Source: Rhodothermales bacterium
Lineage (GTDB): Bacteria > Bacteroidota > Rhodothermia > Rhodothermales > Bin80
Assembly (NCBI GenBank): GCA_963663495.1
Contig: OY760427.1
Span: 2,524,040 to 2,588,039 of the forward strand
Direction: 5' to 3'
DNA length: 64,000 nt
Part shown: in pieces, positions 2,608 through 52,270 of the stretch
How the letters are laid out: every line of letters begins with the position of its first letter
How positions within the stretch are numbered: the stretch's first letter is position 1
The notes under the pieces: model-generated
The model's database searches: none
Seen by the model: the letters and a program-made list of their open reading frames with translations, nothing else
What the model was told of the DNA's origin: nothing
Program-made: the position numbers and the translations under genes

Positions 2608-3355
2608 ATGGAACAACAACCCTTACCATTCACTTCAGCCTCCTCGCTGTTTATCGGCATGGATGTGCACAAAAAGACCGTAGTGCTTTGCGTGTACGAA
2701 AGCAATGCGGGCGTGCGTAATTGACGAACGACAATTATCAAATGATCGACCGAAGATTCACAAGTATTTCCGAAAAATTCAGCGTTGCTACGGTGTTGTA
2801 CTGTGCTGCTATGAAGCGCCGTCCTGCGGGTTTGGCTTGCAGCGGGCGCTGAAAGCGCAGGGCGTTTCGTGTGAAGTAATCGCTCCGTCATATATTCCGC
2901 GCCGGTCTGGCGAGCGCGTGAAGACGGATCGACGGGATGCGAAGGAGCTCGCTACACTGTATGCCGCTGGACTGCTGATGCCGGTGTGTATGCCGGAAGA
3001 AGAGCAGGAAGCGGCACGATCTCTTCCGCGCTGCCGCGCAGACTTGGTGAAGTCCACAACGCAATCCAAACAGCGCATTCTGTCCTTTCTTCAAGTCCGG
3101 GGTTTTCGGTTTACGGGTGGATCGAACTGGACGAAAGGCTTTTCGCACATGGATCCGTACCCTAACGATGACGGGTACGGCATGGTGCCAGATTTAGTAG
3201 GTCTATTTTTTCAAGACCGACTAGGAATGGGTCCGAGATACGATTTCGGCACACATTATAGCAGGGCTTTTCGGAGCTTCGGAAGGTGTGCCGCACAGGG
3301 AAGCTTGCATAATCGGCGTTCGGTTTCCAGCACGGCCACTGCTACCCATCGGTGA
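2608..3355 (+). pseudogene. IS110-family transposase, frameshifted and degenerate
   Basis: ATG 2608 gives MEQQ...FIGMDVHKKT (DEDD N-terminal motif). A frameshift near 2705 leads into CYEAPSCGFGL...VKTDRRDAKELA. The C-terminus is degenerate. Confidence 0.8.
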
Positions 3356-3570: not shown

Positions 3571-3807
3571 GGGGATTATAGTACGTGAGTGACCAACTGT
3601 ACACAGTGAGGCACTAGTATCAATTTCATGGGTCATAGGGGTCGGTAACCCGAACGCCCCTCGCCGTGCAGCAGCCCCAATCCCGGAGGCCAGTATGTTT
3701 GCAGCCGCATTCAGGTCTGCATGATCCGTATGTCCACAGGACATACACTTGAATTTGCTCTGCGTCTTACGGTTACTCGCTTCTGTGTGCCCACACACAG
3801 AACACCG
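3571..3807 (-). pseudogene. tnpB: 3' remnant of a tnpB element (Zn finger, RuvC-III, omegaRNA core, right TIR)
   Basis: Near-identical to 6986-7221 (RCSVCGHTEASNRKTQSKF.CMSCGH.DHADLNAAANIL). Ends in GGGGATTATAGTACGTGAGTG at 3571. Confidence 0.85.
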
Positions 3808-3825
3808 CGGCGGCGTGCCATAGCA

Positions 3826-4129
3826 GGGAGTGATACCTGCCCCCCAGCGTCGTTGCCGCGCCAACGTTTAGTGCGATGGCAACGGGGATTTGGAAGAGAA
3901 CTGTAAAGACGCCAGAGCTACCGGGCGTTATAGCGCCGACGTATGTCCATCGCATAGGCGTGCGCCTCGCGCATCCCAAATGATGCTACGCTTCCCGCAT
4001 CCCCGGTGCAAGCATCATTCCGGTCCGAGGGCTCCGCACCTCTTGAAAGAACCAATCACTACACCGAACTTGCAAAACAGATTAATAAATATTATACAGT
4101 GTCGGGTATCTGAACTGGGCACACGGTAG
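3826..4129 (+). mobile_element. Right-end fragment of the DUF4338-IS4 element
   Basis: Near-identical to the reverse complement of 39934-~40240. Ends ...ACACGGTAG at 4129, followed by CACTAGCC (CTAG-centred like the TSD at 39926/42635). Confidence 0.85.
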
Positions 4130-4434
4130 CACTAGCCTCTGAAAAAGGACTTCACCGGCAGGAGAAGAGGGGGAGAAAGATGCCTTGGACCGTATAGTTC
4201 ATGTACATGTGCGTCCTCCACAATGTTCCGGTTCTTCTCCCCAAAACCCATGTTTTTTGTCCCAAAAGACGCTGATTGCTGACTGCATTCAGGCGCCTGG
4301 ACGATAAGCTGCACACCACTTCGAAATTCCCATATCGGCACACCAAACCCGGCGTATAATCACCTTGCACTAAGCTCTACAAGCGGACTACGCAGACCAA
4401 TGCTAAGCCCGCTTTACCATGTACTTTACCGTAC

Positions 4435-6041
4435 GAGCCTTTTGCAAAACCCCGGTGTATTCGGCGGCGGTGGCGACCCAAATGCCCAAATTTTCGGGTT
4501 TTTCGACATTACGCCGGGAGCATTGGCATGTGTTGCCTTTGGATCCAGATGTATAGGCGGTCCATAGGCGATGAAGGCTTCCCGGGGGGGCGAATTCGGG
4601 GCAGAATCCGTGCTTTGTGGGCACACCCATACTTGGCTCCTGCTTCGCACAAAACCCGATTAGCGCAATTTACGTCTGGATTCCTGTCTCTATTGCACCA
4701 TACGCAACAGCTGATCTACCGTCAGTACCAGCACGCCGAACATCAAGTGGCATGTCACCTTCTTGTGCCCACGCACGCGGACATTACGACCACCAAACTC
4801 ATCCTTGAGCCGCCCGAAGGCTCGCTCAACCGTTGAGCGCTCCCTGTAACGAACATCCTCAGGCGGTACCAATCCGGCTGCTCGCTGGGCCGTTTTCTCG
4901 CGGATAAGCGCCGCCTTACCTTTGCGTCGCGGATTATGGTCGATAATCGGCACATGCCCCAAGCCTTTACTGTGCTCGTGAATCTGCTTCGCGTCGTATG
5001 CACTGTCCATCAGATCATACAAATTGCGTACCCGCAGTTGAGATATCGTAGCCAACGGAATCGCCGCCTAGCTATCATGCAAAGATGCAGAGGAAACAAA
5101 ACCGCTGATCGGTACTCCTCCGTCGGCCACATCCATGTGCAACTTGTACACCGTCCATTTCTGCGTATATCCCTTCGCATTGCGCTTAACGCCTACCGTA
5201 TATCGCTTCGGTAACTCCTCCAACATCTCCTCTATCCCCATGGTACGCTGGCGCACCAGCCGCGGCAACTCCTTCGGAGGCTTTTCATCCTTGGTAGGAT
5301 GCGATGATTTGCACTCTTCTGGACGCTCCGACTCCTTTTTCAGTACCGGCTTCTCTCGCGCTGCTATTGCGGTCGAATCACGCGATAGGTGCCCCACCAA
5401 CTGCTCCGAATACCCCTCCTTTATCAGGGCCTCATGTACACGCGTCGGCAAATCCGCCTCTGAAAATTCCCTGAACACACGTGAAAAGGTCGCCTCACTC
5501 GGCACATCCTCTAACCGATGCCAACCACCCAAACGCCGCAGCGTCGGTTCCGAACGCAACCGCTCCACCAACGCTCTGGTCGTATCCATATTGAACACCA
5601 TCTTCGCTAGGAACGCCCGCGCGAGGGCAGCACGGCTCTTCAACGGACGCCCGGGTATACCGTCCTGAGCACTGGGCAGAAAGCGCTCAACTCGCACCAT
5701 CTCCAGTACCGAGAGCAGCTTCTTATGGCGCCCCTCCAAGGGGCCAATCGTTTCCTCCACCCAGGGGAAAAGCTCCCGTTGGCAGTTGATCCAGAAACCG
5801 CTTAACTTGGAATTGAAGGACATGAGAACCTTCGTTTCTTGCGAGTTTAGTTTCTCCTCCAAAGATACCTGACACGGAGGTTCCAGTCCCTCAAGTGTGC
5901 TTGTTAGCACACATTTTCATGGCCTGTAGAATCCTCCATCTGCACCCGCCGAGCAGTCAAATCTACCTGACCAGCCCCCTATCTTAGGAAATCGCATTTT
6001 CAGACAAAAACACCCCGATTCAAGGGTTTTGCAAAAGGCTC
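4435..6041 (-). mobile_element. IS5/IS1182-like (DUF772) insertion sequence
   Basis: Perfect 18-bp TIRs GAGCCTTTTGCAAAACCC (4435-4452) and GGGTTTTGCAAAAGGCTC (6024-6041), with GTAC on both flanks. Confidence 0.8.
4690..5823 (-). pseudogene. DUF772/DDE transposase with one in-frame stop
   Basis: ORFs 5068-5910 and 4690-5055 are in the same frame, separated by TAG in HDS*AAIPL. Motifs: VPSEATFSR, SRDSTAI, YKLHMD, MDSAYD, RSTVERAFGRLK. Confidence 0.8.
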
Positions 6042-6403: not shown

Positions 6404-6985
6404 CTACTCCTGCGACCCCGGCACCCAATGCTCTACAAGCACGGAACGGCCAATTATTTCAACGATGCGCATATAGCACTCAACGCCGTCCGAGTCGGTC
6501 AACCGGAGTGCTTCGCCGGGAACAAACGGAACCGGCTGCGGCCGACCCCGGCCAACGGAGATATTCCAAGCATACAGATAGGTGCGATCCAGCGTGTCGC
6601 GTATGGGGTTTAACCGCCCCTTCAAGCCGGGTAGACGGCCTGTCGCCTCGGCGAAGATGGCACTTCCGCCCTGCGGCAGCGGAGTCAGTTCAAGAGCGAG
6701 AGCACCGGTAGCGGGCAACCATTCACGCACTAGGCAGGCTGCATGGCCAGGTGCCGCGCCGAACACTATCATCGGCAGCTGGGTCGTATATAGTTCCACA
6801 GCGGCTTCGCCGTTCTCGTCCGCGACTGCCTGCTTCCAAGTTCGGTTCGGGAACAGCGCTAGGACACCCGCTCCTGGCAGGGGCTGATGGTCGGCTCTGA
6901 CAGTGACAACCACGCGGGAGGAAGTGGCGTCCTGCGGTGCGGCGGGGATCCGCAGCAGGATCTCCGCATCGTCAATCAATCTATA
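6404..6985 (-). pseudogene. C-terminal part of the AlbA_2/HATPase gene interrupted by the tnpB element
   Basis: YRL-IDDAEILLRIP continues in frame from RAPKYRL at 8440-8460 once the element and one TSD copy are removed. Confidence 0.8.
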
Positions 6986-6990
6986 GGGAA

Positions 6991-8238
6991 TTATATACGT
7001 GAGTGACCAACTGTACACAGTGAGGCACTAGTATCAATTTCACGGGTCATAGGGGTCGGTAACCCGAACGCCCCTCGCCGTGCAGAAGCCCCAATCCCGG
7101 AGGCCAGTATGTTTGCAGCCGCATTCAGGTCTGCATGATCCGCATGTCCACAGGACATACACGTGAATTTGCTCTGCGTCTTACGGTTACTCGCTTCTGT
7201 GTGCCCACACACAGAACACCGACTGGTATAGGCAGCGGTAACCTTTATCACCTTGCGGCACTTATAGCCCAGCATCTGATCCAACTGGCCCCAACCTGTT
7301 CGCAGTATTCCACGGTTGAGGCCAGACTTCTGTCTGACGTTTGTGCCAAAGCTCTCCATCGTCCCCTTAGCTGAACGTGTCATCGCTTTGATCTTTAGGT
7401 CCTCCAGTATCACCGTTGAGGAGCATTTGGCAATACTGCGACTTACCTGGTGGTTCGCATTCTTGAGGATGTTAGCACGCTTGCGCTGTATGCGGGCGAT
7501 TCTATGCTTCGGCCTGTTACGACGGTTGGAGCCTTTCTTCTGTCTCGCCAGTCTTCGCTGATGCCGCTTCAACTTGACATCAAGACGCTTCGTATCCGGT
7601 TGTCTGATAATGCTTGTATCGCCCTCTGTGGAGACCATAGCGATCTGCCCGCAATTACGGTCAATGCCTACAGCACTGCCGGTATCCTCTATTACAGGTG
7701 CCTCAATCTTGTAGCAGATGACAGCATACCCTTTGCCGGCGTTCTTCTTTACAGTGGCTTTGATGGGTATACCATCAGGGTACGGGTTGCCTCCCCGCCT
7801 GCGGAGCGCCATATATCCCACTTTCGGGATATACAGCTTGCCATCCCGAACCCTTACGTTATCCGGGATCGTGAACGAAGGCGTACTACCACGTCTGGAA
7901 TGGAATCTCGGTCTTCTCTTACCTTCCTTGAAGAATGCCTTCCATGCATCCGCCTGATATTTCAATGTGTATCTAACGACACCAAAGGAGTATTCAGGTA
8001 GCCACTCGACCGTGCGGCGCAGTGCCGTGAACCGCTTCCCCAGCGAGAAGAAGCTTACCGAGGGCGGCTTCTCTCCAGCCTCTTTCGCTTTCTTGTAGGC
8101 CTCGCTCTGCTCTGCGAGGATGGCATTCCACACAAACCTACACGCACCCGCTAATCCAGCAAGTTGCTTGGCGTTACTTCGACTTCCGGGCAACAGCCTG
8201 TATGTGATATTGCGGTATGCACTAACCGTTTCGGGCAT
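6991..8238 (-). CDS. tnpB: RNA-guided endonuclease TnpB, RuvC triad intact
   Basis: 415 aa. HTH (GACRFVWN), RuvC-I GIDRN, RuvC-II LEDL, Zn finger CSVC/CMSC, RuvC-III ADLNAA. Confidence 0.95.
   Translation of the reverse strand: MPETVSAYRNITYRLLPGSRSNAKQLAGLAGACRFVWNAILAEQSEAYKKAKEAGEKPPSVSFFSLGKRFTALRRTVEWLPEYSFGVVRYTLKYQADAWKAFFKEGKRRPRFHSRRGSTPSFTIPDNVRVRDGKLYIPKVGYMALRRRGGNPYPDGIPIKATVKKNAGKGYAVICYKIEAPVIEDTGSAVGIDRNCGQIAMVSTEGDTSIIRQPDTKRLDVKLKRHQRRLARQKKGSNRRNRPKHRIARIQRKRANILKNANHQVSRSIAKCSSTVILEDLKIKAMTRSAKGTMESFGTNVRQKSGLNRGILRTGWGQLDQMLGYKCRKVIKVTAAYTSRCSVCGHTEASNRKTQSKFTCMSCGHADHADLNAAANILASGIGASARRGAFGLPTPMTREIDTSASLCTVGHSRI
7031..7115 (-). ncRNA. Putative omegaRNA 3' scaffold core overlapping the tnpB 3' end
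   Basis: About 90% nucleotide identity with 52158-52243, although the two proteins are clearly diverged. It contains a 34-nt identical block, a GGGG-TCGG-GTTA-CCGA-CCCC nested stem and a CACGG/CCGTG pairing. The 5' boundary is unknown. Confidence 0.65.
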
Positions 8239-8439
8239 GGCACTGTGATATATAACTCCCTAATATATGAAAATTATATTCCATGCGTACCCACGTGTTG
8301 AGTTATTTGAAATAATTGCAGTTTTTCGTGAAAAGCGGGAACCGATTATGAACAACTGGCGAAAGCCATCCTGTCTGCACCACCAAAGCACAATAAGTAA
8401 CTCCTGCGAAAACGCGTGGCATTCAGCCATATAACTCCC

Positions 8440-9605
8440 AATCTATACTTCGGTGCCCGTCCTGATAGCTCGCGGGTCTTACGGATGATTGCAGGAACGC
8501 CATCTCCGCGGCGCTCCATGAAGTAGCGCCGGTCTGCAGAGCCGGGGGTGTCGTCCACTCCCATCCGCCCCATCACGGAGGCGATGGCCTCGTTTCGGGT
8601 CGCTTGCTTCAGCGCCATGCTCTCAATGGTCAGGCTATTGGGGAGCGTGCCGGGCGATTGGATTTCCAAGCGGTCGGAGAACATTGATAGGCGGATCCTG
8701 CTGCCGCGAATTGAATAATCTCGATGCGCCACGGCGTTCACGACCGCCTCAAAGATTGCCTTCTCACTGTACTGCGGCATGTTGATCCGTGCGGGCGTCT
8801 CGCGAGCGGCGACTCGCATGTTACGCCACGCAAACGACACCGCGGCCCTGATCTGTCGCTGGAGCGGACCGGTAATTTCCTGCGAGTCCACTTGTCCGGT
8901 CGTACGATCCGTTCCGCGATAGAGGGTTGCCGTAATGGCGGCATTGGGCAACCACTGCTCGGGGCATTGAGTGCACAATAGTACACCAGCCACGGTCGCG
9001 CATTGGACCCCGGAATCATTCGACGCGAGCAGCGCGAGCTTCGCTAGGCCGACCTCCGGCTCGGCGGCGCCCTCGGCGGTCAGCATCGGCACCCATAGCG
9101 CAGGGTCTAACGTGTCGAACCCTGTTCCCGCCACCGGCTGCTCGTCGAACCACAAGTGCCGACCCTGTGCGCGCCGCTGCCTCAACCGCATCGGTTCGTC
9201 GCCTATCAACCGGCGCTTGCTTGCTCCGACCCGGATCCAACTTCGACCGTCGTGCTCGTGCAGCGACTCGCCCCGTGGCACTTCGACCAAGACAAAGGCT
9301 TTGCCGTCCAGCTCCCGGTGATGCACATTGATGCGCAGGGCAGGCTTGATGGCGTCAGTACTCAACTCGGTCACTAGGTTGTTAAGCGTGGTCATCTGTT
9401 CGCGGGTCATACCTTGAAGGAGCCCCCCATCCGTTACGCCCATCAACAGCCGACCGCCGATCGCGTTGGCAAAAGCGATCATCTCGGCGGCGAGATGATC
9501 GCGACTGGGGCTTGCGAAACGTGTGCCAGAGAACTCTACCCGCTTGAACTCCCACCTACTGTCTTCGCCCAGTTGCAGCCGCTGCCGGATGTCCTCGTCA
9601 CGCAT
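8440..9605 (-). pseudogene. N-terminal part of an AlbA_2 (Schlafen-like) + HATPase_c_4 (RecG-C-like) protein, interrupted
   Basis: MRDEDIRQRLQLGEDSRWEFK, FANAIGGRLLMGVTD, EAVVNAVAHRDYSI, LEIQSPG. Rejoined with 6404-6977 it gives a 579-aa ORF. Confidence 0.85.
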
Positions 9606-9607
9606 CG

Positions 9608-9730
9608 TCAGAAGATCATCTCGGCGATGTACTTGGCCGCGTCTATTGAGTCGAGTAACGTATAGGACATAGCCCACAACTCGGCCTTATAGCTGGTCGT
9701 GGCGCCACTGTCATTCTGCTTGGAGGGCAT
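9608..9730 (-). pseudogene. hsdM: N-terminal remnant of type I R-M methyltransferase HsdM
   Basis: MPSKQNDSGATTSYKAELWAMSYTLLDSIDAAKY resembles the HsdM_N pattern YEAELW.MADALRGSMDAAEY. Confidence 0.55.
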
Positions 9731-10164
9731 CTCCTCTCGCTCGGTTCAGAATCGAATGCCCCGCGCACTGCCGGAGCCCTTCCCAAGATACGACATGTGT
9801 CGTGGCGCCGTACACCCTATCGGAGCAGAACAGGCCTACCCGCAGGTAGGCGTCCCGCGAGCTGGGCCTAGCCGTCTGTGCGCGCGGAGAAACTTGATCA
9901 TTACTGAGATCGGTGTCATCGACCATCTCAGGTAGTCGGACATCAACCCAAGGGCGAAACGGGGCGGTAGCACGCAGACGCTGCTCGGATCCAGGACACT
10001 CAGTGGGCCCGGATTTCCCGCAGATCTACTTGTGGAAGAGGCGGGCGAAGCGGCTCGCCGGAATTGAGGCGAAGTGCGGCTACGCCGCTCCGGTGATGGG
10101 TTCCCGAATCCGGGCTAGATTCCTATCCGAGGCAGCGCTTCCGCTTCCTGATCCCAGCCAAGGG

Positions 10165-10343
10165 CTGCCCTGTACCCATAAATCATCCATTACGGTTCGA
10201 TTGTTCGTCAGGTATGGTCAAATATCGCTGGCATGGCTGTCGGAATATCTCGGGTATTTCGGCCTAACAGGTATGGTGTGTGACTTGAGGTGAATAATGC
10301 CATCCTCTCGTGCGGATACGCCATCTCTTCCTGCGCCGCTTCC
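10165..10343 (+). repeat. 179-bp inverted repeat, partner at 13046-13224
   Basis: Manual alignment gives about 11 mismatches. Confidence 0.85.
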
Positions 10344-10503
10344 CTTGGCGCTGCATTGCCTACATCCACGAACCCTCGGCTGCAGTCTCCTGGCGATACT
10401 TCTGCCTCCAGTAATTCAACGGTCCGTACGAGATGCCGTGCTCTGCGCAAGACGCCGCTGCGGACCGGGTCCTTTCGTTATACTGCTCTACCAGCGGAAA
10501 CAT
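10208..10503 (-). pseudogene. Possible IS66 accessory tnpA remnant
   Basis: MFPLVEQYNERTRSAAASCAEHGISYGPLNYWRQKY resembles the IS66 TnpA HTH. It frameshifts into GFVDV...EMAYPH. Confidence 0.4.
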
Positions 10504-10676
10504 CTCTTCCGCCGTACGTCTGGGCTGTACCAGGCGGACGGTCCGGGGTCTGGGTTCTCACGTCTACGGGTAAGCTCTACAGAACCCGTCACCTAATCAA
10601 GATGCAAGTTCACCGCACGCTCACGCAGGTGTAGCCACTGGGGCATAGGCCCACATCAGGCAGGTTGATATGCCAT

Positions 10677-12986
10677 TTATATGAACCCAGATGAATTCCC
10701 GTGCGAACATGCACTCAATTGTTCGTCTCTTACCTCGTATCCCAATGTCATTAGGTGTAACCTCTCTAGGCCACGCCACATGATCTGGTAACCCACCGGT
10801 CCATCACGAGTGCGGTTCTGATAACCGCCGAGCACCGCTACGATCAGGATAGCAGCTCCCAAAGTACTGGGCTTCGGCAGCTTTACCCGTGCTGCATATC
10901 CATCCAAGAATCGCAGCTCCATCTCCGTGAAAAAGACATCCGCGTCCAGCTCCGGCACCTCCCGACCCAATTGCACCAAGGTCATGACGCGCCAGGATAT
11001 CACACAATACATCGTTATTGCTCGCTGCAGACGCAACGAGGTACGCAGACCCAAACGCTCTACCTTGCACCCACTCTTGAGCACGCGGAAGAAGTCTTCC
11101 ACCCGCCACCGCTTGAGATACATGGCCAACACCCGCCGTGCATCCGCTACGCTCCCTACCTCCATGCTGGTCAATAGCATCCACTCCACCGGCAGCGCAT
11201 CCCCCGGAGGCTCCACCTCCAACACATGCACCCCGTACATCACCACCGGCTCCTCCTCGTTCTTCGGATCCGGCAACAAGAACCTCCCGTAGCGTACCTC
11301 CACATTGACCATCCGGTAACTGCGACCCTTCCGTGCCTGCTTGCGCGCCTGCTTCTTGCGCGCCGTCACCCGCTGTATCTCTATCTCCACATTCCCCGGA
11401 GCCTTACCACTGCGCATTACCGCAAACAGCTTGCGATCATCCAACAGCTTGCGATCATGCTTCGCTCGTATCAATACCTCCGCCTTACCCTGTCTGCGCT
11501 GCTCGGCAAACATAGCAAAGCTGTCCGCCTCCCGGTCCGCAACACAGATCACCTGCGTCTCGCCGGACAGCTCCTCCGCCGCCTCGCATATATCCTTGAA
11601 CCCGTCTATCCACTGCTGCGTCCGCGGAGCATGCGGACCCTCCTCCGGATCCTTGAAGCTGCCACGCAACACCCCCAACGTCAATCCATCCTCCGTCACC
11701 ACCAGCGTCGCATGCAACGGCAACCCCAGCGTCTTCGCCGTCGTCTGATTACTCCCTATTACCTCCAAATCCGTACACGCCGGCCGCGTACTGTACCGCA
11801 ACTTCGTCGTGTCCCGGATGCATAACACGGTCTCCTGACTACGCATGCGCTCTATCGTACGCCCACGATGCGGCGCCAATATGTTCTCCGGCGTTACCGT
11901 TTTGTCCTTCTTGCTCTCCAATAACCGGTAATGCCCCTTCACCGCCGCGCGGTCCGCATCCGTATGCGCGGTAATGCTGTGGCCTATCACATCGGCCAAC
12001 ATGGACGTACTCTTTACCAGTCGCACAGACAACCGCCTGTCTCCCAATGGCGCTCCGCCAAACTCCGTTTCGGCCCACTGCGCACTGTCAATCCCCTCGT
12101 GCGGATCCCTCACCGGACGCAACTCCTCCTCCGGTTCCCCCAAGGTCCCGCGCCATTCTTTGTCCAACTCGTATACATACAGCCCCTTGGGATCCTCTTC
12201 CTTTGCCTCCTTGTGCCGCTTTCCGCCTGCGGTATGGCCGATCAATACAAAATTGTTCACCTCAAAACACGCTCCTTCCCCTTGGGGATCCACATACGTT
12301 TCGACAACCCAGGGACGGTAACAGTACCGTGCCTGAAAATCATCCGCCAACCGTCTCAATACCTTACCCAGTACATGGCTGGCCAAATCCTGACACTGCC
12401 CCCGTATCAGAAAACGACTCAAACACACCACACGGTGCAAATGCGCCTTGCGCTGCTCATCACTCCACGCCATCCAGTGCTCTCTGGGCGCCAGGCACAA
12501 CGCCGCCGCCGAAAATCCCACCGCTCCCAGGTAACCATGGGCACTGCCTATCAGATAGCGTACCTGCGCTCCCACAAATGTGGTCGTACGCCTCGGATGC
12601 TCAAAGTGCAGCAACGTGTTCCACACCATACGCTGCTCGTCCGTCTCAACCAACTCAATCGTCAACCCCCGGACACCGTGTACCGTGCCCGGTAACGCTA
12701 TCGGATCCGGTACCCGCTCCTCGCGCCTACGCGGTTCCGCCTTAGCCGCATTACAATTCTCGGGCTTGGGCAACACAATCCTCCCCCGGGCCTCCAACTT
12801 CGATAAAGCCTGCGCACAGTTGCTCACCTGCGGTTCGCCCCGTGCATCAACAAACCCGAACTCTTCACAGACAGCGCGCGCTATCTGCGTGCGAAACCGC
12901 CAACGATCGTCGGCAAGAACCCTGTCCAAACGCTCTCCATTGCAGGGAGCGGTGAGCGTTCGTAAGACCTGACCTCGTTGAAACAT
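10677..12986 (-). CDS. IS4 (Tn5-like) transposase with N-terminal DUF4338 (DruA-like) domain, intact
   Basis: 769 aa. YLIGSAHGYLGAVGFSAAA (DUF4338), WAETEFGGAPLGDRRL (Tn5-N), DDE residues in IRDTT, ADREAD and RWRVEDFFRVLKSGC. Left end CTACCAC at 13036. Confidence 0.9.
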   Translation of the reverse strand: MFQRGQVLRTLTAPCNGERLDRVLADDRWRFRTQIARAVCEEFGFVDARGEPQVSNCAQALSKLEARGRIVLPKPENCNAAKAEPRRREERVPDPIALPGTVHGVRGLTIELVETDEQRMVWNTLLHFEHPRRTTTFVGAQVRYLIGSAHGYLGAVGFSAAALCLAPREHWMAWSDEQRKAHLHRVVCLSRFLIRGQCQDLASHVLGKVLRRLADDFQARYCYRPWVVETYVDPQGEGACFEVNNFVLIGHTAGGKRHKEAKEEDPKGLYVYELDKEWRGTLGEPEEELRPVRDPHEGIDSAQWAETEFGGAPLGDRRLSVRLVKSTSMLADVIGHSITAHTDADRAAVKGHYRLLESKKDKTVTPENILAPHRGRTIERMRSQETVLCIRDTTKLRYSTRPACTDLEVIGSNQTTAKTLGLPLHATLVVTEDGLTLGVLRGSFKDPEEGPHAPRTQQWIDGFKDICEAAEELSGETQVICVADREADSFAMFAEQRRQGKAEVLIRAKHDRKLLDDRKLFAVMRSGKAPGNVEIEIQRVTARKKQARKQARKGRSYRMVNVEVRYGRFLLPDPKNEEEPVVMYGVHVLEVEPPGDALPVEWMLLTSMEVGSVADARRVLAMYLKRWRVEDFFRVLKSGCKVERLGLRTSLRLQRAITMYCVISWRVMTLVQLGREVPELDADVFFTEMELRFLDGYAARVKLPKPSTLGAAILIVAVLGGYQNRTRDGPVGYQIMWRGLERLHLMTLGYEVRDEQLSACSHGNSSGFI

Positions 12987-13045
12987 GCCGCAACATAAAA
13001 AACAAGTAGCGAAAGGTCAAGCACCTGAAGTGGTAGAATGGCAGT

Positions 13046-13224
13046 GGAAGCGGCGCAGGAAGAGATCGCGTATCCGCACGAGAGGACGGCATTATTCACC
13101 TCAAGTCACACACCATACCTGTCAGGTCGAAATACCCGAGATATTCCGACAGCCATGCCAGCGAGAGTTGACCAGAACTGACGAACAATCGAACCGTAAT
13201 GGATGATTTATGGGGGAAGGGCAG
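13046..13224 (-). repeat. Second copy of the 179-bp inverted repeat
   Basis: Reverse complement matches 10165-10343. Confidence 0.85.
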
Positions 13225-13722
13225 CGCCAAGCCTCCCGGAGACTCCAGAGACTCTGGAGCACGGACGATGTTTTCCTCCTCGGAAGGTGCTTCTGCCAAC
13301 TGCTCCCTAGTGCCGTCTGGAGCCGCATTATCCGACGGAAGCATAACATCCTCTTCCAGACTAGACGTCAACTGCTGCACACACTCGGTGAGGTGCCGCA
13401 ACAAGTCAAATTGCAGCTGCCGACCGGACGCGCCGGCATGACGCAGCCCCTGAATGAGCTGCGATAAATCATCTGATAAACTCATAAGTGATCATGGATC
13501 CGTATGGTGAAAGGGCTTAGGAAACCCAAGCCAACACCGAACCAATAATCACTTTTTCAGCCAACAAGGAATGGCACGCCGCCCGTTGTCGGTAGAACAA
13601 ATGTCCTTTGGGCATGTGTTCATACGTTGTGCCGAATTGGGATTGTCAGTAGGAGCGCATGTGTGAACATATAAGTTCCCCCTTGATGTAGACTTCCACA
13701 GTCCGGGGACTAATGCAAACAT

Positions 13723-30930: not shown

Positions 30931-32658
30931 ATGTGTTATTGTAGGCTGGCGGTAGTGATAGTGTTCGTGCTGGTGGCAAGTTGTGACAGTGTGTTCGAGC
31001 CAGACATTGGACCTGCACAGTCCGAACATGTCGGTAACGTCCGGCTGTGGTATCAGGAAGCCATGGGCACCTCAAGTCTTGGCAAGGCGGCAGTGGACAG
31101 CACGGAGCTGGCAATTCTTGCTGCACTTGTACGAGAATATCCGCCCGACTGGCAGCAGGCAGTGGCATGGGTGGACGCGGATGGTGGGGTCCATGTAAGC
31201 ACCGTACTTGGATCGGACAAACCGGCTGTAAGCTTTTCTGATTCGAGTGTGTCAGTTGTACGTACCTTTATTGCCGACTTGGATGAAGCAGGAGAGGTAG
31301 AGGGGGCGAGACTGCTTGAGTTTGCCAATGTCCAGAAGCTGGACCCTGCTGATTTTGTGCAGTACCTGGCCATGTGGCTGACAGGCGACTTTGGCGACCT
31401 TACGATGCTTGTTGCAGAGTACAGTATCGGATATGCTGCTAAGCAGGCGGTGTTCTTTAGGCCCGGCAGCAGTGCTGCTGAGCCTGTAGCACTGTCTTTG
31501 GAGCAGAGGAAATCGGCTGGCAAGGCTCCGCCGGATGGTGTGTGGATGTGTTATGTATCGGAATTCAAACGTGGTTGGGAAATCTGCATAGAAGATGTGG
31601 AACCAGGGTTGGGCAAGGTCGGGTGTATTGAAGGCCCTGCCGAGATTGAGTACACATGTATCTATTTCCCTGGTCATAGCGGTGGCGGAGGAGGATCGGG
31701 TGGCGGCCGTGGTGGAGGAGGTGGAGGAGGTGGAGGAGGCGGAGGAGGCAATGATGACGATGACAACGATGACGAGACCAAGCAGGTCGTTTTTGCGCTG
31801 GATTGCGATAAGACCGTAACTCGCGGTAACAACGGCAGCTGCACCGTTACCGCCACGAAAGAAGACGAGCTGGTTGACCTTAGTCAGTACACCTTTAAAT
31901 GGACATCCTCAACAGGTGCAAGCCGTTCCGGCAAAGGTCTTTACACTTGGGGTGGCATCGCGACCGACAAGACAACCGTAAAGGTAGATGTCAGCGGATT
32001 CAGCGATTCCAAGAAGATCAAAGTGACTGCAAGGTCGAACTGGCGTTCAAAAGCAGTACGGGCAGATTGGGTCTATTCAAACAGGTATCCATATGATGGA
32101 TTCTACGAACTGTTTAACAAAGCCTCGCAAGTTCCAGCGCCGGGGGCAGGAACTGGACCTTGGGCGGGGCGATTCTACATGAAGGACCCGCCTGAAGTGC
32201 ACACGACGATACATATACACCACAAATTCGCCCAGTCGGGCCCTGCCTATCCGGGTGCAAATGACACCTGCGCGCGATCATCCACATTACGGGAAAATGA
32301 AACCCACCGGACTGTCAATAATCGCTGTGGCACATCTAAAGAATTGGAATCATATTTCCACATGGTTTTGGCACACGAGCGGGATCACGAGGCCGGAATC
32401 AACGAGTGTCTTACGTCCAGCTCAAAGGCGAAGGACACGATGAAGAAATTAGAAAAGACCGTTGCCAACAGCAGCGCCGACCTGCAGGATAGTGCACAAG
32501 ATTTATGGGAAGAGTTCTATGATAATTCACTGACACAGTCTGGGCTCTCGGGAAAATCCTATGCAAGCCTTGACGAGCACTTCTGGCACTACGGCATTAT
32601 CGGATGGAAGCTCGGTTGGGTTGTAATAGCTACGGAGAAATTAGTTGATAATTGTTAA
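30931..32658 (+). CDS. Lipoprotein with Gly-rich linker, Ig-like middle region and C-terminal HExxH (zincin-like) domain
   Basis: Lipobox VASC, poly-Gly/Asp linker at 31678-31785, AHERDHE motif. Function is inferred only. Confidence 0.65.
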   Translation: MCYCRLAVVIVFVLVASCDSVFEPDIGPAQSEHVGNVRLWYQEAMGTSSLGKAAVDSTELAILAALVREYPPDWQQAVAWVDADGGVHVSTVLGSDKPAVSFSDSSVSVVRTFIADLDEAGEVEGARLLEFANVQKLDPADFVQYLAMWLTGDFGDLTMLVAEYSIGYAAKQAVFFRPGSSAAEPVALSLEQRKSAGKAPPDGVWMCYVSEFKRGWEICIEDVEPGLGKVGCIEGPAEIEYTCIYFPGHSGGGGGSGGGRGGGGGGGGGGGGGNDDDDNDDETKQVVFALDCDKTVTRGNNGSCTVTATKEDELVDLSQYTFKWTSSTGASRSGKGLYTWGGIATDKTTVKVDVSGFSDSKKIKVTARSNWRSKAVRADWVYSNRYPYDGFYELFNKASQVPAPGAGTGPWAGRFYMKDPPEVHTTIHIHHKFAQSGPAYPGANDTCARSSTLRENETHRTVNNRCGTSKELESYFHMVLAHERDHEAGINECLTSSSKAKDTMKKLEKTVANSSADLQDSAQDLWEEFYDNSLTQSGLSGKSYASLDEHFWHYGIIGWKLGWVVIATEKLVDNC

Positions 32659-32669
32659 ATGGTGACGCA

Positions 32670-33341
32670 ATGAAGATGAAAACGATGTTGTTATTGTTCA
32701 TCCTGATTCCGGTCGGACTCCGGGCGCAATCGAACGGTCTGATGTTTAAGGACGGCGAATGGCAAAAACCGACGCCTGCTGCGGCTCTACGCGCATTCGA
32801 GGCAGACCCAAACGGCGATTCTGACGATTCCGATAAGCCCATCCTTGCCGTATTGCGCCAACGATATCAAGCGTTCACGGATGAAGAGCTGAACGCACTA
32901 GCCGAGAACCTCGTAGTAATGATTCGCGAAGGAACGCCTGAGCAAGCGTATAATGCGTTTGTTGTGCTGCTCTTTTCTGGCCGGCGACAGTTCGCCCCCA
33001 GTGAAGATACCCCATACGCGGGAGCAAAAGATATATTTATTCGCCTGTACGAGTCAGGCCTGGACAGAAGATCAGAGGGTAAGGGATTTTCCATAACCTG
33101 GAAATCCGCACTGCGGGGTGTTTACTCTGCCGGTGGATACGATTACGTTCGGAACCTGTTCGGAGCGAGTGAACTGCCGCCCCCTTGCCAATATCAACTA
33201 AGACGCCCGGTTGAAAATCCGTGCCCGAATAAGGGCACTTGGTGCGATGCCGGATTGATATTGTTGTCAAAAGAAGACGAGCATGCACCAGACAGCGAGC
33301 TGTGGCGCAGGCGCTGCGGCCAACCTAGGATAGGTTTTTAG
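32670..33341 (+). CDS. Secreted Cys-containing partner protein, copy 1
   Basis: Signal peptide MKMKTMLLLFILIPVGLRA|Q. Starts 11 nt after the lipoprotein stop. Confidence 0.75.
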   Translation: MKMKTMLLLFILIPVGLRAQSNGLMFKDGEWQKPTPAAALRAFEADPNGDSDDSDKPILAVLRQRYQAFTDEELNALAENLVVMIREGTPEQAYNAFVVLLFSGRRQFAPSEDTPYAGAKDIFIRLYESGLDRRSEGKGFSITWKSALRGVYSAGGYDYVRNLFGASELPPPCQYQLRRPVENPCPNKGTWCDAGLILLSKEDEHAPDSELWRRRCGQPRIGF

Positions 33342-33570
33342 GTCCATGTAGGAGATGCTGGAATGCAAGCAGCTGCACTGGTGATGGCCGCATTTATGAC
33401 TCTGGACGCAAACGGACGGCATATTGCTTACGGAGGGCGCAAAGTAAACGCCCACACCTACTTTAATGCTTCGTGCAATCAAGGTAGAACCGAGGGAAGG
33501 CAGACCTAGGCCTACCGTTCAACCGGTACCCCTACTTAACATTGTAATTCATGCCGCTTAGATTGGCGGC

Positions 33571-34809: not shown

Positions 34810-34820
34810 ATGGTGACGCA

Positions 34821-35474
34821 ATGAAGATGAAAACGATGTTGTTATTGTTCATCCTGATTCCGGTCGGACTCCGGGCGCAATCGAACGGTCTGATGTTTAA
34901 GGACGGCGAATGGCAAAAACCGACGCCTGCTGCGGCTCTACGCGCATTCGAGGCAGACCCAAACGGCGATTCTGACGATTCCGATAAGCCCATCCTTGCC
35001 GTATTGCGCCAACGATATCAAGCGTTCACGGATGAAGAGCTGAACGCACTAGCCGAGAACCTCGTAGTAATGATTCGCGAAGGAACGCCTGAGCAAGCGC
35101 ATAATGCGTTTGATGTGCTGCTCTTTTCTGGCCGGCCACAGTTCGCCCCCAGTGAAGATACCCCATACGCGGGAGCAAAAGATATATTTATTCGCCTGTA
35201 CGAGTCAGGCCTGGACAGAAGATCAGACGGTCTAACCAGGAAAGTCGCACTGCTGGGTGTTTACTCTGCCGGTGGATACGATTACGTTCGGAACCTGTTC
35301 GGAGCGAGTGAACTGCCGCCCCCTTGCCAATATCAACTAAGGCGTTCGGTTGAAAATCCGTGCCCGAATAAGGGCACTTGGTGCGATGCCGGATTGATAT
35401 TGTTGTCAAATGAAGACGAGCATGCACCAGACAGCGAGCTGTGGCGCAGGCGCTGCGGCCAACCTAGGAGATAG
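34821..35474 (+). CDS. Secreted partner protein, copy 2
   Basis: Paralog of 32670-33341 with a variant central region and a 2-nt insertion at the extreme C-terminus. Confidence 0.75.
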   Translation: MKMKTMLLLFILIPVGLRAQSNGLMFKDGEWQKPTPAAALRAFEADPNGDSDDSDKPILAVLRQRYQAFTDEELNALAENLVVMIREGTPEQAHNAFDVLLFSGRPQFAPSEDTPYAGAKDIFIRLYESGLDRRSDGLTRKVALLGVYSAGGYDYVRNLFGASELPPPCQYQLRRSVENPCPNKGTWCDAGLILLSNEDEHAPDSELWRRRCGQPRR

Positions 35475-35711
35475 GTTTTTAGGTCCATGTAGGAGATGCT
35501 GGAATGCAAGCAGCTGCACTGGTGATGGCCGCATTTATGACTCTGGACGCAAACGGACGGCATATTGCTTACGGAGGGCGCAAAGTAGACGCCCACACCT
35601 ACTTTAATGCTCCGTGCAATCAAGGTAGAACCGAGGGAAGGCAGACCTAGGCCTACCGTTCAACCGGTACCCCTACTTAACTTTATAATTCATGCCGCTT
35701 AGATTGGCGGC

Positions 35712-36950: not shown

Positions 36951-36961
36951 ATGGTGACGCA

Positions 36962-49941: not shown

Positions 49942-50968
49942 CTGCATGTCCTGCGAAACCACATCGTCTGTTGCAGTGCTGCATGGCGGAGGCTATGCAG
50001 GGCGTGAGCTGATCCAACTCCTTGTACGCCATCCCTACACGGCACTGACTGCGGTCACAAGCCGCACATTCGCCGGCGGGCCCGTCCATACCGCCCACCC
50101 GTCGCTACGCGGCCAGACGGACCTGCGATATGTGAACCCCGCAAATGTGGACCTGCTTGCAATGGATGCCCTTATCCTCGCTGCCGAGCACGGCAAAGCA
50201 GCTGCCGTCGTCCATCAACTGGTCCGGGCCGGATACGATGGTGTAATTATTGATTTAAGTGCAGACTTCAGGTTTGCGGATGCCGGTGAGTATGAAAAAC
50301 GGTTCAACCGTTCTCACCCGGCCCCGGATCTGGTGCCACGTTTTTCGTACGGGCTTGCAGAGGTTTGCGCACCGTACGGCGGGCGCTTCATTGCGAATCC
50401 CGGCTGCTTCGCCACTGGCATTGCGTTGGCCTTGCGGCCGATTTCTCAGGCTATAGGTGCGGTGACAGCGCAGGTCACAGCCCTTACGGGCGCGTCCGGA
50501 TCAGGAACACTACCCAAACCCACGACCCACTTTCCGTCGAGAGACGGAAATGTGCGTGCCTACCGCCCGCTGAACCACCAGCACCTGCCTGAAGTGCTGA
50601 GCATGTTGGAGCCGGGATCCAATGTGGCCTTTGTGCCTGTTTCCGGGCCTTGGACGCGCGGAATTTGGGGGATGGCCTATGTGCAGCTGCCAGGCAGCGT
50701 AAGCATGCAGGAGGTGGACGGCTGGTTCAGTGCGGCGTATCCGGCCGGCCGCTGTGTGCGCACATGGTCCGGCCAGCTCCCCGAATTGCACTATGCGCTA
50801 GGAACACCCTATTGCGATATTGGGTGGACCATCAGAGACGGCGTGCTGGTCATCGTTTTCGCGCTGGACAACCTGCTGAAAGGCGCCGCCTCCCAAGCGG
50901 TGCAGAACCTCAATCTGGTAATGGGCTGGCCAGAAACAGCCGGATTGATAAGGGGTTTATATGCCTGA
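49934..50968 (+). CDS. argC: N-acetyl-gamma-glutamyl-phosphate reductase (last codons altered by an insertion)
   Basis: GGGYAG, DLSADFR, ANPGCFAT, DNLLKGAASQAVQN. Confidence 0.93.
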   Translation: MIDCMSCETTSSVAVLHGGGYAGRELIQLLVRHPYTALTAVTSRTFAGGPVHTAHPSLRGQTDLRYVNPANVDLLAMDALILAAEHGKAAAVVHQLVRAGYDGVIIDLSADFRFADAGEYEKRFNRSHPAPDLVPRFSYGLAEVCAPYGGRFIANPGCFATGIALALRPISQAIGAVTAQVTALTGASGSGTLPKPTTHFPSRDGNVRAYRPLNHQHLPEVLSMLEPGSNVAFVPVSGPWTRGIWGMAYVQLPGSVSMQEVDGWFSAAYPAGRCVRTWSGQLPELHYALGTPYCDIGWTIRDGVLVIVFALDNLLKGAASQAVQNLNLVMGWPETAGLIRGLYA

Positions 50969-52270
50969 GTACCCCCGACTATGAACCTTTGGCTTGATGG
51001 ATGTTATGCCCGCAAAGGGTTGTAACAATTCTGCCCGCGTTTGTTCTGTCTATAGAACAATTGAATACCGGCTGCCTCCGGGGAGCAAGAGCAAGGGAAA
51101 GAAACTAGCCGGGATTGCTGGTGCTTGCAGGTTCGTGTGGAACGCCATACTGGCGCAGTGCATCCAGGGATACAAACGGGCAAATGAGTCGGGAGAGAAG
51201 CCTCCGTCCGTGAAGTACTTCTTCCCTCTTGGAAAACGGTTTAAAGAACTATGAGATCGCACCGAGTGGCTGCCGAAGTACTCGTTCAGCGTGGTGCGCT
51301 ATACGCTGAAGGTCCAACCCGACGCATGGAAGGCTTGCTTCAATCAAGGTAGGGCTAAACCGAAGTTCAAAGCCAAATACAGAAGCAATCCATCATTCAC
51401 CATTCCTGAAGCGGTCAAGATAAAGGATAGACGGATGTTCATCCCCAAGCTTGGATACCTGAAGATCCGACGTAAAGGAGGCAACCCGTATCCGGATGGG
51501 GTTCCTGTAAAAGCCGTGATTCTGCAACGGGTGGGCAAATGGTATGCCTGCACATGCTACAGGATTGAAGCACCTGAGATAGAAGACAATGGCGTTGCCA
51601 CAGGGATAGACCGTACCTGCGGACAGGTTGCCACCGTCTCCACCGATGGCAAGCGCGAGATCATACGGCAACCGGACGGTAAGCGTAATACGGCAAAACT
51701 GCACCGGTATCAACGGAAATCAGCCCGACAGCAGAAAGGATCCAACCGCAGATATCGCACTAAGAAGCGACTCTGGAAAGCTCACCGAGCGATTGCGATG
51801 ACCCGCAGGGATACCAATCACCAAGCAAGCCGGAGGATCGCGAATCGCTCTTCTACGGTTGTGCTGCCAGATCTTTATGTCGTGGCGATGACTTCATCTG
51901 CCAAAGGGACTGCTGACAATCCAGGCAAGAACGTCGCCCGGAAGGCAGGGCTGAACCGTAGCATTAATGCCACCGGATGGGGGCAGTTAGACGGGATGCT
52001 GCAGTACAAATGCCGGGAAGTGCTCAAGATCCCAGCCCCTTACACGAGTCAGGACTGCAACAACTGCGGTCGCCGGGACAAAGCGAATAGATTGACCCAA
52101 AGTAAATTCAAGTGTGTCTCATGTGGATACACCGACAATGCGGACCCTAACGCTGCCGCAAACATATTGGTCTCCGGGATTGGGGCGACTGCACGGCGAG
52201 GGGCGTTCGGGTTACCGACCCCATTGATCTGTGAAATTGATACGCGAGGGCACTCACGTAGATAATTCCC
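50952..52270 (+). mobile_element. Second TIR/TSD-bounded tnpB element
   Basis: Left end GGGGTTTATATGCCTGAGTA, right end CACTCACGTAGATAATTCCC. ATTGATAA is duplicated at 50944-50951 and 52271-52278. Confidence 0.9.
50994..52265 (+). pseudogene. tnpB: TnpB with an in-frame TGA (51252-51254) and RuvC-II E replaced by P
   Basis: ORFs 50994-51254 and 51291-52265 are in the same frame. Motifs GIDRT, LPDL (LEDL in the other copy), CNNC/CVSC, ADPNAA. Confidence 0.9.

Follow-up and report, generated by a model that had tools for sequence, protein, structure and literature searches.

In the IS200/IS605 element ISDra2, the omegaRNA scaffold of TnpB measures 116 nt; its stem-1 loop is paired to positions -6 to -2, stem 4 lies directly before this strand and position -1 is unpaired (PMC10097598). 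TnpB-family nucleases are also carried by transposons with TIRs. Fanzor reRNAs have been described in such transposons for SfAV Fanzor1 and for algal and mollusc Fanzor2* (Yoon et al. 2023, PMC10711439), as have TnpB branches associated with DDE transposases, DDE-1 to DDE-6 (Altae-Tran et al. 2023, PMC10691335; summary PMC13565253); both are known precedents for the elements considered here. According to the accessible parts of the latter two sources, DDE-associated TnpBs have IS630, ISL2 and IS1031 as named partners and resemble our elements in the inverted terminal repeats around tnpB, in a tnpB 3′ end less than 250 bp from the element end, and in solo tnpB copies, which there have ends in common with transposase-bearing copies. 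No description of RNA anatomy relative to the TIR was found in the accessible part of Altae-Tran et al. 2023 (PMC10691335).

In this study, we analysed a 64-kb stretch of Rhodothermales DNA (the window) and confirmed in it, at the coordinates given there, the features that the original prediction had named, namely three tnpB 3′ ends with structured RNA, a 25-nt or 7-nt segment and a 20-bp TIR. We put a probability of about 75% on the reading that the 3′ portion of a TnpB omegaRNA lies here, its scaffold extending across the TIR as far as the element's last base, with a guide from the flank, a single-G TAM and mobilisation in trans. The encoded protein is homologous to ISDra2 TnpB (IS200/IS605; PDB 8H1J, 8EXA) over residues 13-384 (E 1e-21), and the predicted RNA likewise overlaps the tnpB 3′ end and has the order stem-1 loop, stems 2/3, stem 4, pseudoknot strand and guide, its scaffold measuring 119 nt as against 116 nt in ISDra2. 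The carrier, however, has TIRs and 8-bp TSDs, whereas ISDra2 has subterminal hairpins and no TSD. Also unlike ISDra2, the candidate TAM is a single G rather than TTGAT, stem 4 and the pseudoknot strand would consist of TIR sequence recognised by a transposase, and the guide would begin with the 8 nt of the TSD. With the Fanzors our elements have in common a TnpB-family nuclease inside a cut-and-paste TIR/TSD transposon and TIR bases within the predicted guide-RNA scaffold. In contrast to the Fanzors, our elements live in bacteria and encode a compact, canonical TnpB that has the canonical glutamate; they apparently retain the pseudoknot lost in Fanzor1, and their TSD, being 8 bp and variable, would be no part of the scaffold.

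Three tnpB copies in the window

The elements and their ends are as follows.

6986..8439 (-): composite mobile element A, bounded by the outer left end LE1 and the right end RE, with the 8-bp duplication TATAGATT on either side
6991-8238 (-): tnpB copy A, 415 aa, recognised by Pfam domains
6986..7005 (-): right TIR CACTCACGTATATAATTCCC, recognised by TIR match
8239..8260 (-): inner left TIR LE2 GGGAGTTATATATCACAGTGCC, taking up the 22 bp before the start codon of tnpB
8269..8439 (-): MITE-like piece, with outer left TIR LE1 at 8418-8439 and a degenerate right end at 8269-8282; 8 bp links it to LE2
8440..8448 (-): left TSD copy TATAGATT (TSD 8440-8447); the G before it, at 8448, is the candidate TAM base
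3571..3817 (-): copy B, a dead, 5′-truncated 3′ fragment of tnpB, 98% identical to A
50952..52270 (+): copy C, from a second lineage, complete as an element but with a tnpB pseudogene
50944-50951 and 52271-52278 (+): TSD of copy C ATTGATAA, with G at 50943

The two TSD copies of element A are identical at 8/8 positions (8440-8447 vs 6978-6985). Its TnpB has the Pfam domains HTH_OrfB_IS605 (PF12323), OrfB_IS605 (PF01385) and Cas12f1-like TNB (PF07282), and we found a RuvC-like nuclease, a zinc ribbon and an N-terminal HTH/WED-REC part, with the zinc finger intact. The catalytic D-E-D triad (D193/E279/D370) is also intact; its columns are invariant in the alignment of relatives and align with D191/E278/D361 of ISDra2 TnpB, and the zinc finger aligns with that of ISDra2 as well. 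The stop codon TAA (6991-6993) falls within the TIR. The stretch 8260-8439 had been considered a long 5′ leader like that of L006/L011-type relatives, but it is not homologous to it and was reread as the MITE-like piece. In copy B the scaffold (3571-3690) has one stem pair broken and one extra base in the TIR tip. Copy C, whose TnpB lineage shows 61% protein identity to the A/B lineage, has an in-frame stop near 51252 and an E to P change in RuvC-II.

Element ends and mobilisation

Among the related loci the TIRs measure 20-30 bp, with perfect 30-bp TIRs in L046 and L056. AT-rich 8-bp TSDs were found in 39 elements, a set defined by at most one mismatch between the two copies, and most were identical at 8/8 positions. 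The base 5′ of the left TSD (-1) is G in 38/39 elements, while C follows the right TSD (+1) in 15/39; the G is replaced by A in L009, whose TSD is imperfect, and in L086, and by C in L083. Positions 1-3 of the TSD are strongly A/T, and the AT-richness is roughly symmetric (1-3 and 6-8). The elements of L085 and L086 were identified by eye, both having been missed by a strict generic TIR and TSD scan of the metagenome loci.

TIRs together with a fixed-length TSD are what is found in DDE-type cut-and-paste insertion sequences, and the combination of 20-30-bp TIRs with perfect 8-bp AT-rich TSDs points to tnpB-only units that would be mobilised in trans by a DDE-type transposase. The original prediction was correct that in IS605 the guide is the host DNA directly after the right end; the present elements, however, are not IS605-type because of these TIRs and TSDs. 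Neither the IS200/IS605 family, including its tnpB-only IS1341 group, nor IS607 fits them. Both families lack TIRs and TSDs; IS200/IS605 elements have subterminal hairpins and a Y1 TnpA and insert 3′ of a fixed tetra- or pentanucleotide, while IS607 has a serine recombinase as TnpA and GG at its ends. No Y1 transposase occurred in the window or the loci and no serine recombinase among the scanned ORFs. A transposase with matching TIRs was found neither in the window nor in 161 fetched loci, and TIR-pair scans of 80 loci yielded no autonomous partner. Candidate inner ORFs were assigned by Pfam to Peptidase_M78 with HTH, SNF2 helicase, IS4-type DDE, phage integrase and IS91-type proteins, none of them TIR-bounded. 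A 3.3-kb TIR-bounded unit in L050 proved to be a tnpB element with a nested, unrelated IS4-like insertion.

IS630, ISL2 and IS1031 have TSDs of 2-3 bp. The TSD of 8 bp and the negative partner searches set our elements apart from TnpBs partnered with those families, as far as the accessible parts of their description go. The ISNwi1 group of the IS1595 family (ISfinder) has ends of the form ggnnatTAT and 8-bp TSDs, and some members carry passenger genes. These ends and this TSD length presumably fit GGGAATTATAT plus an 8-bp TSD. The resemblance is a putative one: we saw no transposase of the IS1595 type with such ends, and a literature search on IS1595/ISNwi1 yielded no usable description.

Scaffold, guide and rival readings

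We mapped the RNA features below onto the right ends.

6986..7104 (-): where the omegaRNA scaffold of copy A is predicted to lie; its 119 nt (-119 to -1) run up to the terminal base of the element, as judged from covariation, the covariance model and mapping onto ISDra2
7088..7104 (-): P1 hairpin (stem-1 analogue) GCCU/GGGC; its loop GGGAUU (7093-7098) is the 5′ strand of the proposed pseudoknot
7041..7082 (-): nested stems CACGG/CCGUG, GGGG/CCCC and UCGG/CCGA (stems 2/3 analogue), from covariation
6995..7034 (-): terminal hairpin (stem-4 analogue), in which AUAC (7031-7034), next after GAAAUUG, closes with GUAU (6995-6998) inside the TIR
7006..7030 (-): 25-nt variable segment, which in the fold caps the terminal hairpin and contains the inner stem ACUG/CAGU
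6986-6992 (-): TIR tip AAUUCCC, proposed 3′ pseudoknot strand; its partner, the GGGAUU loop, lies about 110 nt upstream
6966..6985 (-): predicted guide of copy A TATAGATTGATTGACGATGC, right TSD (6978-6985) plus host flank, placed by scaffold topology
52170..52270 (+): the 101-nt omegaRNA scaffold of copy C, whose stem 4 (52240-52261), AUACGCGAG/CUCACGUAG, is short in the fold

A covariance model of the scaffold, a check that the original prediction had called for, recovered exactly three sites in the window, all of them tnpB 3′ ends (copy A, 6986-7131, 143.9 bits; B, 124.6; C, 120.7), the next match reaching 11 bits; an Rfam scan of the entire window gave no match. With the covarying stems, it describes a structured RNA that overlaps the tnpB 3′ end and reaches the right element end. 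The predicted GGGG/CCCC, TCGG/CCGA and CACGG/CCGTG pairings are present and covary across relatives, 97-100% of cells being paired with many compensatory changes. In P1, pair 105-117 (alignment A2) is CG in 19 sequences and GC in 7. The terminal stem is paired in 93-95% of cells (27 and 32 lineages), compared with 80-81% in shuffles and 28-58% in slid controls, and its covariation score of 0.35 (0.12 in shuffles) was reached by 0/500 shuffles. Its AUAC/GUAU closing pairs change to AUCG/CGAU and others in 8-10 lineages (AU to CG, CG to GC). Minimum free energy folds of 34 lineages nearly all give one hairpin whose 3′ arm is the inner TIR, with the final ~9 nt unpaired in most.

Pairing of the TIR tip with the GGGAUU loop can be proposed from the alignments, with modest covariation. 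A pseudoknot of 5-6 bp is possible in 34/34 lineages, with several compensatory variants, modest statistics and an ambiguous register in the window's lineage. The paired arm and tip variants are GGGACU:AGUCCC (9 lineages), GGGAAU:AUUCCC (L085/86), GGAAUU:AAUUCC (L083), GGGGUU:AGCCCC (L047/48) and GGGAUU:AAUCCC (L008). Most of the pairing is an invariant GGG:CCC, and the count for the pseudoknot alone lies above all but 1/500 shuffles. For the lineage of the window itself, a 6-bp pairing includes a U.U mismatch unless it is shifted by 1 nt, which brings in a G.U pair; tested alone, the shifted register showed no covariation. The 5′ arm overlaps the codons for G-I-G, so protein constraint and shared ancestry may add to the correlated changes.

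Mapped onto ISDra2, these features suggest the following arrangement. Downstream of the nested stems, GAAAUUGAUAC would fold back onto the inner TIR half (AUAC:GUAU) as the equivalent of stem 4, and the TIR tip and GGGAUU loop would form the guide-adjacent pseudoknot of TnpB and Cas12 RNAs. Most likely, TnpB still takes its guide from the host DNA directly outside the element; we infer the positions of the omegaRNA 3′ end and of the guide start from sequence comparison. The guide would be transcribed host flank, its first 8 nt the right TSD and the next ~8-12 nt unique flank; the sequence predicted for copy A is unique within the window. An empty allele, consisting of G, 8 bp and flank, would be cleavable, the occupied right junction (...TTCCC, 8 bp and flank) would be spared, and at the left junction the match to the guide would be limited to 8 nt. 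The G at -1 may then serve as a minimal TAM that distinguishes empty sites from the CCC-ended occupied junction. A single base is unusually short for a TnpB TAM. By cutting empty alleles the nuclease would favour copying of the element through recombination, a role that has been proposed for TnpB of IS605.

The original prediction had favoured another arrangement, in which the scaffold ends at GAUAC and a fixed, element-encoded guide made of segment plus TIR (TAGTGCCTCACTGTGTACAG) is present in all copies and targets the ends of sibling elements, such as their inverted left ends, or another locus. Conservation between the two lineages of the window indeed falls right after GATAC: the A/B/C alignment is near-identical from GCAAACATA to GAAATTGATAC, then reads TAGTGCCTCACTGTGTACAGTTGGT (A, B) or GCGAGGG (C), then CACTCACGTA.ATAATTCCC. 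Copies A and B being near-identical, only two independent lineages are compared there, and the stop reported at GATAC turns out to be an 18-nt indel within one hairpin, beyond which conservation returns at the TIR. The TIR is also present inverted at every left end, so a guide containing it would have many potential targets; such a guide would, however, be self-destructive unless a TAM rule prevented it. The segment is the same in all copies of one lineage, and is thus lineage-specific rather than copy-specific; it is missing from copy C and from the 78%-identical relatives L001/L081, the former with an intact 8-bp TSD. It forms the tip of a covarying hairpin, whereas a guide must be single-stranded. 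Outside copies A and B the segment matched nothing in the window, nor anything in phage and plasmid collections. A scaffold ending at GATAC would moreover have only 74 nt and possess neither stem 4 nor the 3′ pseudoknot strand, features common to all TnpB and Cas12 guide RNAs. Judged by alignment and fold, the segment is a dispensable hairpin tip and not a built-in guide, and we regard the fixed internal guide as highly improbable. The covariation, the folds, the tabulated pseudoknot pairs and the ISDra2 mapping instead support what the original prediction had offered as its alternative, a scaffold that has absorbed the TIR and a guide that starts at the TSD.

Two further explanations both appear unlikely to us. 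In one, the conserved hairpin and TIR are subterminal palindromes bound by the transposase at the DNA level, the clade has no functional guide RNA, and TnpB is a passenger in decay or put to another use. In the window two copies out of three are dead, and in several lineages, among them some Paracoccaceae, the left end bears an inverted copy of the right-end hairpin, so that the palindrome could partly serve transposase binding. Yet the right-end hairpin is on average the more stable (-13.5 vs -11.0 kcal/mol, Wilcoxon p = 0.005) and in the window's lineage the left end lacks it. The upstream stems covary strongly though far outside any TIR, covariation ties a loop in the coding region to the TIR tip, and full-length ORFs with an intact D-E-D triad persist in relatives to ~50% identity; a single 90%-identity cluster has 212 members. 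In the other, the scaffold also takes in part or all of the 8-bp TSD, as has been proposed for eukaryotic Fanzor transposons, and the guide starts inside or after it, the AT-rich TSD start and the G upstream forming a TAM-like signal. Incorporation of RF nucleotides (IS607) and of TSDs (eukaryotic TIR elements) in the reRNA scaffold has been reported (Yoon et al. 2023, PMC10711439). The A/T bias of TSD positions 1-3 would suit such a signal, and the structure in the PDB nearest to the RuvC part of copy A TnpB is that of Cas12n. The TSD, however, differs at every insertion and hence cannot be a conserved scaffold element, and the symmetry of its AT-richness fits a transposase preference rather than a TAM.

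Significance and the wider family

If the scaffold does run through the TIR, the same ~22-30 nt would act as transposase-binding TIR in double-stranded DNA and as stem 4 plus pseudoknot strand in RNA, one short sequence under a double constraint, read as DNA by the transposase and as RNA by TnpB. The TAM would be reduced to a lone G that does no more than separate empty sites from the occupied junction ending in CCC. In some lineages the left TIR looks like a decayed inverted copy of the omegaRNA 3′ half, which suggests that the TIRs may derive from the guide-RNA gene; were this so, prokaryotes would have a counterpart to the captures from which Fanzors arose. We propose only tentatively, as a possibility more doubtful than probable, that a bacterial TnpB clade (Rhodothermales, Paracoccaceae and gammaproteobacterial MAGs) resides in an undescribed TIR/8-bp-TSD transposon with dual-use ends of this length, a single-G TAM and guide-gene-derived TIRs. 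Such elements would illustrate the path of an RNA-guided nuclease from hairpin-ended IS605-type elements into a TIR/TSD transposon, and a guide-RNA 3′ end rebuilt from a transposase recognition sequence would be a bacterial parallel to the proposed Fanzor route. This may have practical application, as a single-G TAM, if true, would give nucleases of ~400 aa an unusually wide targeting range in genome editing.

The best named plasmid relatives of this TnpB are at most 37% identical, and more distant relatives (below ~36% identity) are without the TIR and TSD. Within the family, one 90%-identity cluster comprises 212 protein variants, almost all on a single 5.9-Mb contig, a strong expansion that makes the family well suited to studying whether cut-and-paste elements profit from TnpB homing.

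The tnpB copies and their carrier element

tnpB copies of the window
Copy A: 6991-8238, minus strand, intact tnpB
Copy B: 3571-3817, minus strand, 3′ tnpB fragment, 98% identity to A
Copy C: 50952-52270, plus strand, second lineage, ~61% protein identity

The 415-aa ORF of copy A has the TnpB domains of Pfam (HTH_OrfB_IS605, OrfB_IS605 and the Cas12f1-like TNB), and the scaffold and variable segment lie at its 3′ end. ISDra2 TnpB (8H1J/8EXA) is among its nearest solved relatives (E 1e-21, residues 13-384); D193, E279 and D370 lie opposite the catalytic D191, E278 and D361 of ISDra2 and do not vary among 14 aligned relatives. The RuvC half is nearer in sequence to solved Cas12n (type V-N, 9J09, E 2e-23) than to ISDra2, and shares with 9J09 an insertion that ISDra2 lacks (MTxSAKGTxExPGxNVxxKSGLNR, residues ~286-309). 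Copy C is a pseudogene, with one in-frame stop near 51252 and an E-to-P change at the RuvC-II catalytic residue. The element, which with its TSDs spans 50944-52278, is inserted into the final codons of argC in an arg operon, with argD on its other side, and replaces the ArgC C-terminus (...GLIT-stop becoming ...GLIRGLYA-stop). Copy B is broken at 3817/3818 by a different repeated element (3818-4135), whose termini recur inverted at 39928-40242 (97% over 260 nt). The protein of copy A belongs to a 90%-identity cluster of 212 members, and nearly all members read lie on the same 5.92-Mb contig, which indicates a family strongly expanded in the source genome.

A protein-level scan, with each species represented by one genome, yielded 80 loci, all in MAGs; these belong to Rhodothermales (up to 78% identity), Paracoccaceae, Arenicellales and other Gammaproteobacteria. 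Virtually all show GGGRMTTATAT... as their left end and ...ATATAAKYCCC as their right, which form TIRs of 20-30 bp (perfect across 30 bp in the loci L046 and L056), and each element has an 8-bp AT-rich direct duplication on both sides; a uniform rule (TSD with at most one mismatch) retained 39 elements, window copies A and C included. As TIRs and TSDs are both absent from IS200/IS605 and IS607 elements (PMC13565253), the carrier elements qualify for neither group. The tnpB elements look like non-autonomous cut-and-paste units mobilised in trans by a DDE-type transposase. Their end consensus and 8-bp TSD resemble what we take to be those of the ISNwi1 group of IS1595. No transposase for these TIRs was found in the window or among 161 loci; the IS4-type gene at L050 4120-5925 (552 aa, DDE_Tnp_1), considered as an autonomous partner, is an unrelated nested insertion that interrupts tnpB near residue 370. 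In a metagenome scan the TIR/TSD architecture was kept down to ~37-41% protein identity (L085-L087), and no such TIR or TSD was seen in relatives beyond that; three of five inspected distant relatives share the terminal motif ...GGAGGAWGTCAAG.

In the element of copy A the left-end TIR occurs twice (8418-8439 and 8239-8260, within 8239-8447, minus strand). The two are separated by a MITE-like stretch of ~170 bp, whose right end (8269-8282) is degenerate, and a further 8 bp (ATATATTA). A perfect TSD (TATAGATT) is common to the outer left end and the right end of tnpB alone, so the MITE and the tnpB element seem to have moved as one composite. At L047, a second omegaRNA-like match (2555-2703, 81.8 bits) runs up to a right-end TIR, which lies ~220 bp upstream of the main element's left end; this match could be a remnant or else a copy that lacks tnpB.

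The TIR as part of the predicted scaffold

A three-way alignment reproduced exactly the described succession of conserved RNA, a segment of 25 nt (A, B) or 7 nt (C), and TIR. A covariance model of the scaffold recovered these three tnpB 3′ ends (144, 125 and 121 bits) and nothing else in the window, where the next match scored 11 bits; an Rfam search gave no match for the window. Among the relatives, the segment following GAAAT.GATAC is the same across copies of one lineage and different between lineages, and is thus not a per-copy guide. The named structure was counted on 27 and on 32 lineages, against shuffles and against a 3′ partner slid by 1-3 columns.

Pairing and covariation of the named structure
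Cells paired: observed 93-95%; shuffles 80-81%
Cells paired, 3′ partner slid 1-3 columns: 28-58%
Covariation score: observed 0.35; shuffles 0.12 (0/500 reach the observed value)

Each of the originally described stems (CACGG/CCGUG, GGGG/CCCC and UCGG/CCGA) has multiple compensatory changes, and the closing stem AUAC/GUAU (AUCG/CGAU in Paracoccaceae lineages) has compensatory changes as well. An unbiased search for covarying column pairs across the relatives' alignment recovered the known stems, and in two of its pairs the AC in GATAC is linked with the TIR-core GT (CG/GC/UG and AU/CG). When the tail is folded by MFE in 34 lineages, a single hairpin results nearly every time, with a 5′ arm starting at GAUAC or its equivalent, a 3′ arm made of the inner TIR, and the last ~9 nt (AUAAUUCCC) unpaired in most lineages. 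In copy A the 25-nt segment folds as the apical portion of the hairpin (inner stem ACUG/CAGU). The hairpin is short in copy C, L001 and L081 (AUACGCGAG/CUCACGUAG in C; AUACGUAAGUA/UACUUUCGUAU in L001); the 18-nt lineage difference thus comes down to an indel at a tip that the hairpin can do without. The tnpB stop of copy A (TAA, 6991-6993) lies within the TIR and 5 nt short of where the element ends, so that the predicted scaffold, its final 5 nt excepted, overlaps the ORF; relatives have their stop at variable sites shortly past GATAC.

In the 116-nt ISDra2 scaffold, stem 1 joins -116..-111 to -91..-86, its loop (-106..-102) forms a pseudoknot with -6..-2, stems 2/3 are central, and stem 4 stands just before the 3′ pseudoknot strand, with -1 unpaired beside the guide (PMC10097598). 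The scaffold of copy A, predicted at 119 nt, maps onto it element by element.

Scaffold of copy A, counted back from the element's last base (-1), just 5′ of the predicted guide
P1 hairpin: -119..-103
Loop arm GGGAUU: -113..-108
Nested stems: -97..-56
Terminal hairpin: -49..-10
Tip: -7..-1

The P1 hairpin, GCCU...GGGC, ~110 nt upstream, has a pair (105-117) that covaries CG/GC, and its loop GGGAUU is able to pair with the TIR tip. Loop and tip vary together between lineages.

Loop and tip sequences
GGGACU with AGUCCC: 9 lineages
GGGAAU with AUUCCC: L085, L086
GGAAUU with AAUUCC: L083 (synonymous GGG-to-GGA change)
GGGGUU with AGCCCC: L047, L048
GGGAUU with AAUCCC: L008

The pseudoknot-only count exceeds all but 1/500 shuffles. 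Covariation support for the pseudoknot is modest, because three pairs are invariant G:C, the window lineage shows a mismatched U.U unless the register moves by 1 nt with a G.U pair, and the 5′ arm is coding sequence; the shifted register by itself shows no covariation.

The original prediction, a guide fixed inside the element, finds no support in a variable segment that is a hairpin tip and constant within a lineage. A scaffold stopping at GATAC would have just 74 nt, without the stem 4 and 3′ pseudoknot strand that structural papers call conserved in TnpB and Cas12 guide RNAs. Given the covarying stem and the ISDra2 topology, the best-supported reading is the alternative raised alongside it, in which the TIR has become part of the scaffold and the TSD marks the start of the guide. 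That hairpin and TIR are conserved purely at the DNA level is improbable, although it is kept alive by several Paracoccaceae lineages whose left end consists of a long, decayed copy of the 3′ half of the omegaRNA in inverted orientation, with minus-strand covariance model matches of 15-35 bits vs 95-150 bits at true right ends; the right-end hairpin is on average stabler than its left-end counterpart (-13.5 vs -11.0 kcal/mol, p = 0.005). Part of the palindrome may also be important as DNA, or the TIRs may instead have arisen from the guide-RNA region; the left-end copies are no rescue for an internal guide. Such copies occur at L070 2786-2922, minus strand, and near 2775-2940 in L020, L066, L056, L059, L027 and L014, and TIR similarity in these elements reaches far past 30 bp.

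Predicted guide and candidate TAM

From the topology of the predicted scaffold, we infer that the guide would begin directly after ...UUCCC, with the right TSD copy and then unique flank (TATAGATTGATTGACGATGC in copy A, ATTGATAACCTAACCGGTAC in copy C, each unique in the window). A separate clue comes from the flank logo of the 39 elements, in which G stands just 5′ of the left TSD in 38/39, C at the mirror position past the right TSD in only 15/39, and TSD AT-richness is about symmetric. Exceptions to the G are L009 (A, imperfect TSD), L083 (C) and L086 (A). Symmetric preferences would be expected of a transpososome with two-fold symmetry, so the asymmetry points to something oriented with tnpB, for which a TAM requirement is the simplest candidate; we give this TAM reading roughly even odds. 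A 1-nt TAM would be unusually short. The empty allele (G + 8 bp + flank) would then present a TAM and complete target, the occupied right junction (CCC + 8 bp + flank) would lack the TAM, and at the left junction the guide match would be limited to 8 nt.

A TIR within the scaffold is already known for Fanzors in TIR transposons, where the TIR and even the TSD are part of the reRNA (Yoon et al. 2023, PMC10711439), and DDE-associated TnpBs with inverted terminal repeats have already been described in a survey (PMC10691335; PMC13565253). Apparently new are the 8-bp-TSD family of tnpB elements, the dual use of the TIR as stem 4 and pseudoknot strand in a bacterial TnpB, its RNA role being predicted, and the single-G asymmetry beside the left TSD.

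Neighbouring features of the window

2705-3355: IS110-type fragment
5068-5910: IS5-like DUF772 transposase fragment
8346-9677: gene beside the left end of element A, encoding a 443-aa Schlafen AlbA_2 + HATPase_c_4 protein
10677-12986: 769-aa ORF, a fusion of a DruA domain and a Tn5-like transposase with DNA-binding, DDE and dimerisation domains; inverted repeats of 180 nt flank it (10164-13225)
32076-40050: four ~2.15-kb units in tandem, with long stretches of 98-99% identity, each with a 412-aa DruA-domain ORF and a ~225-aa ORF
41922-42641: inverted 720-nt copy of the ~2.15-kb unit, downstream of the tandem units
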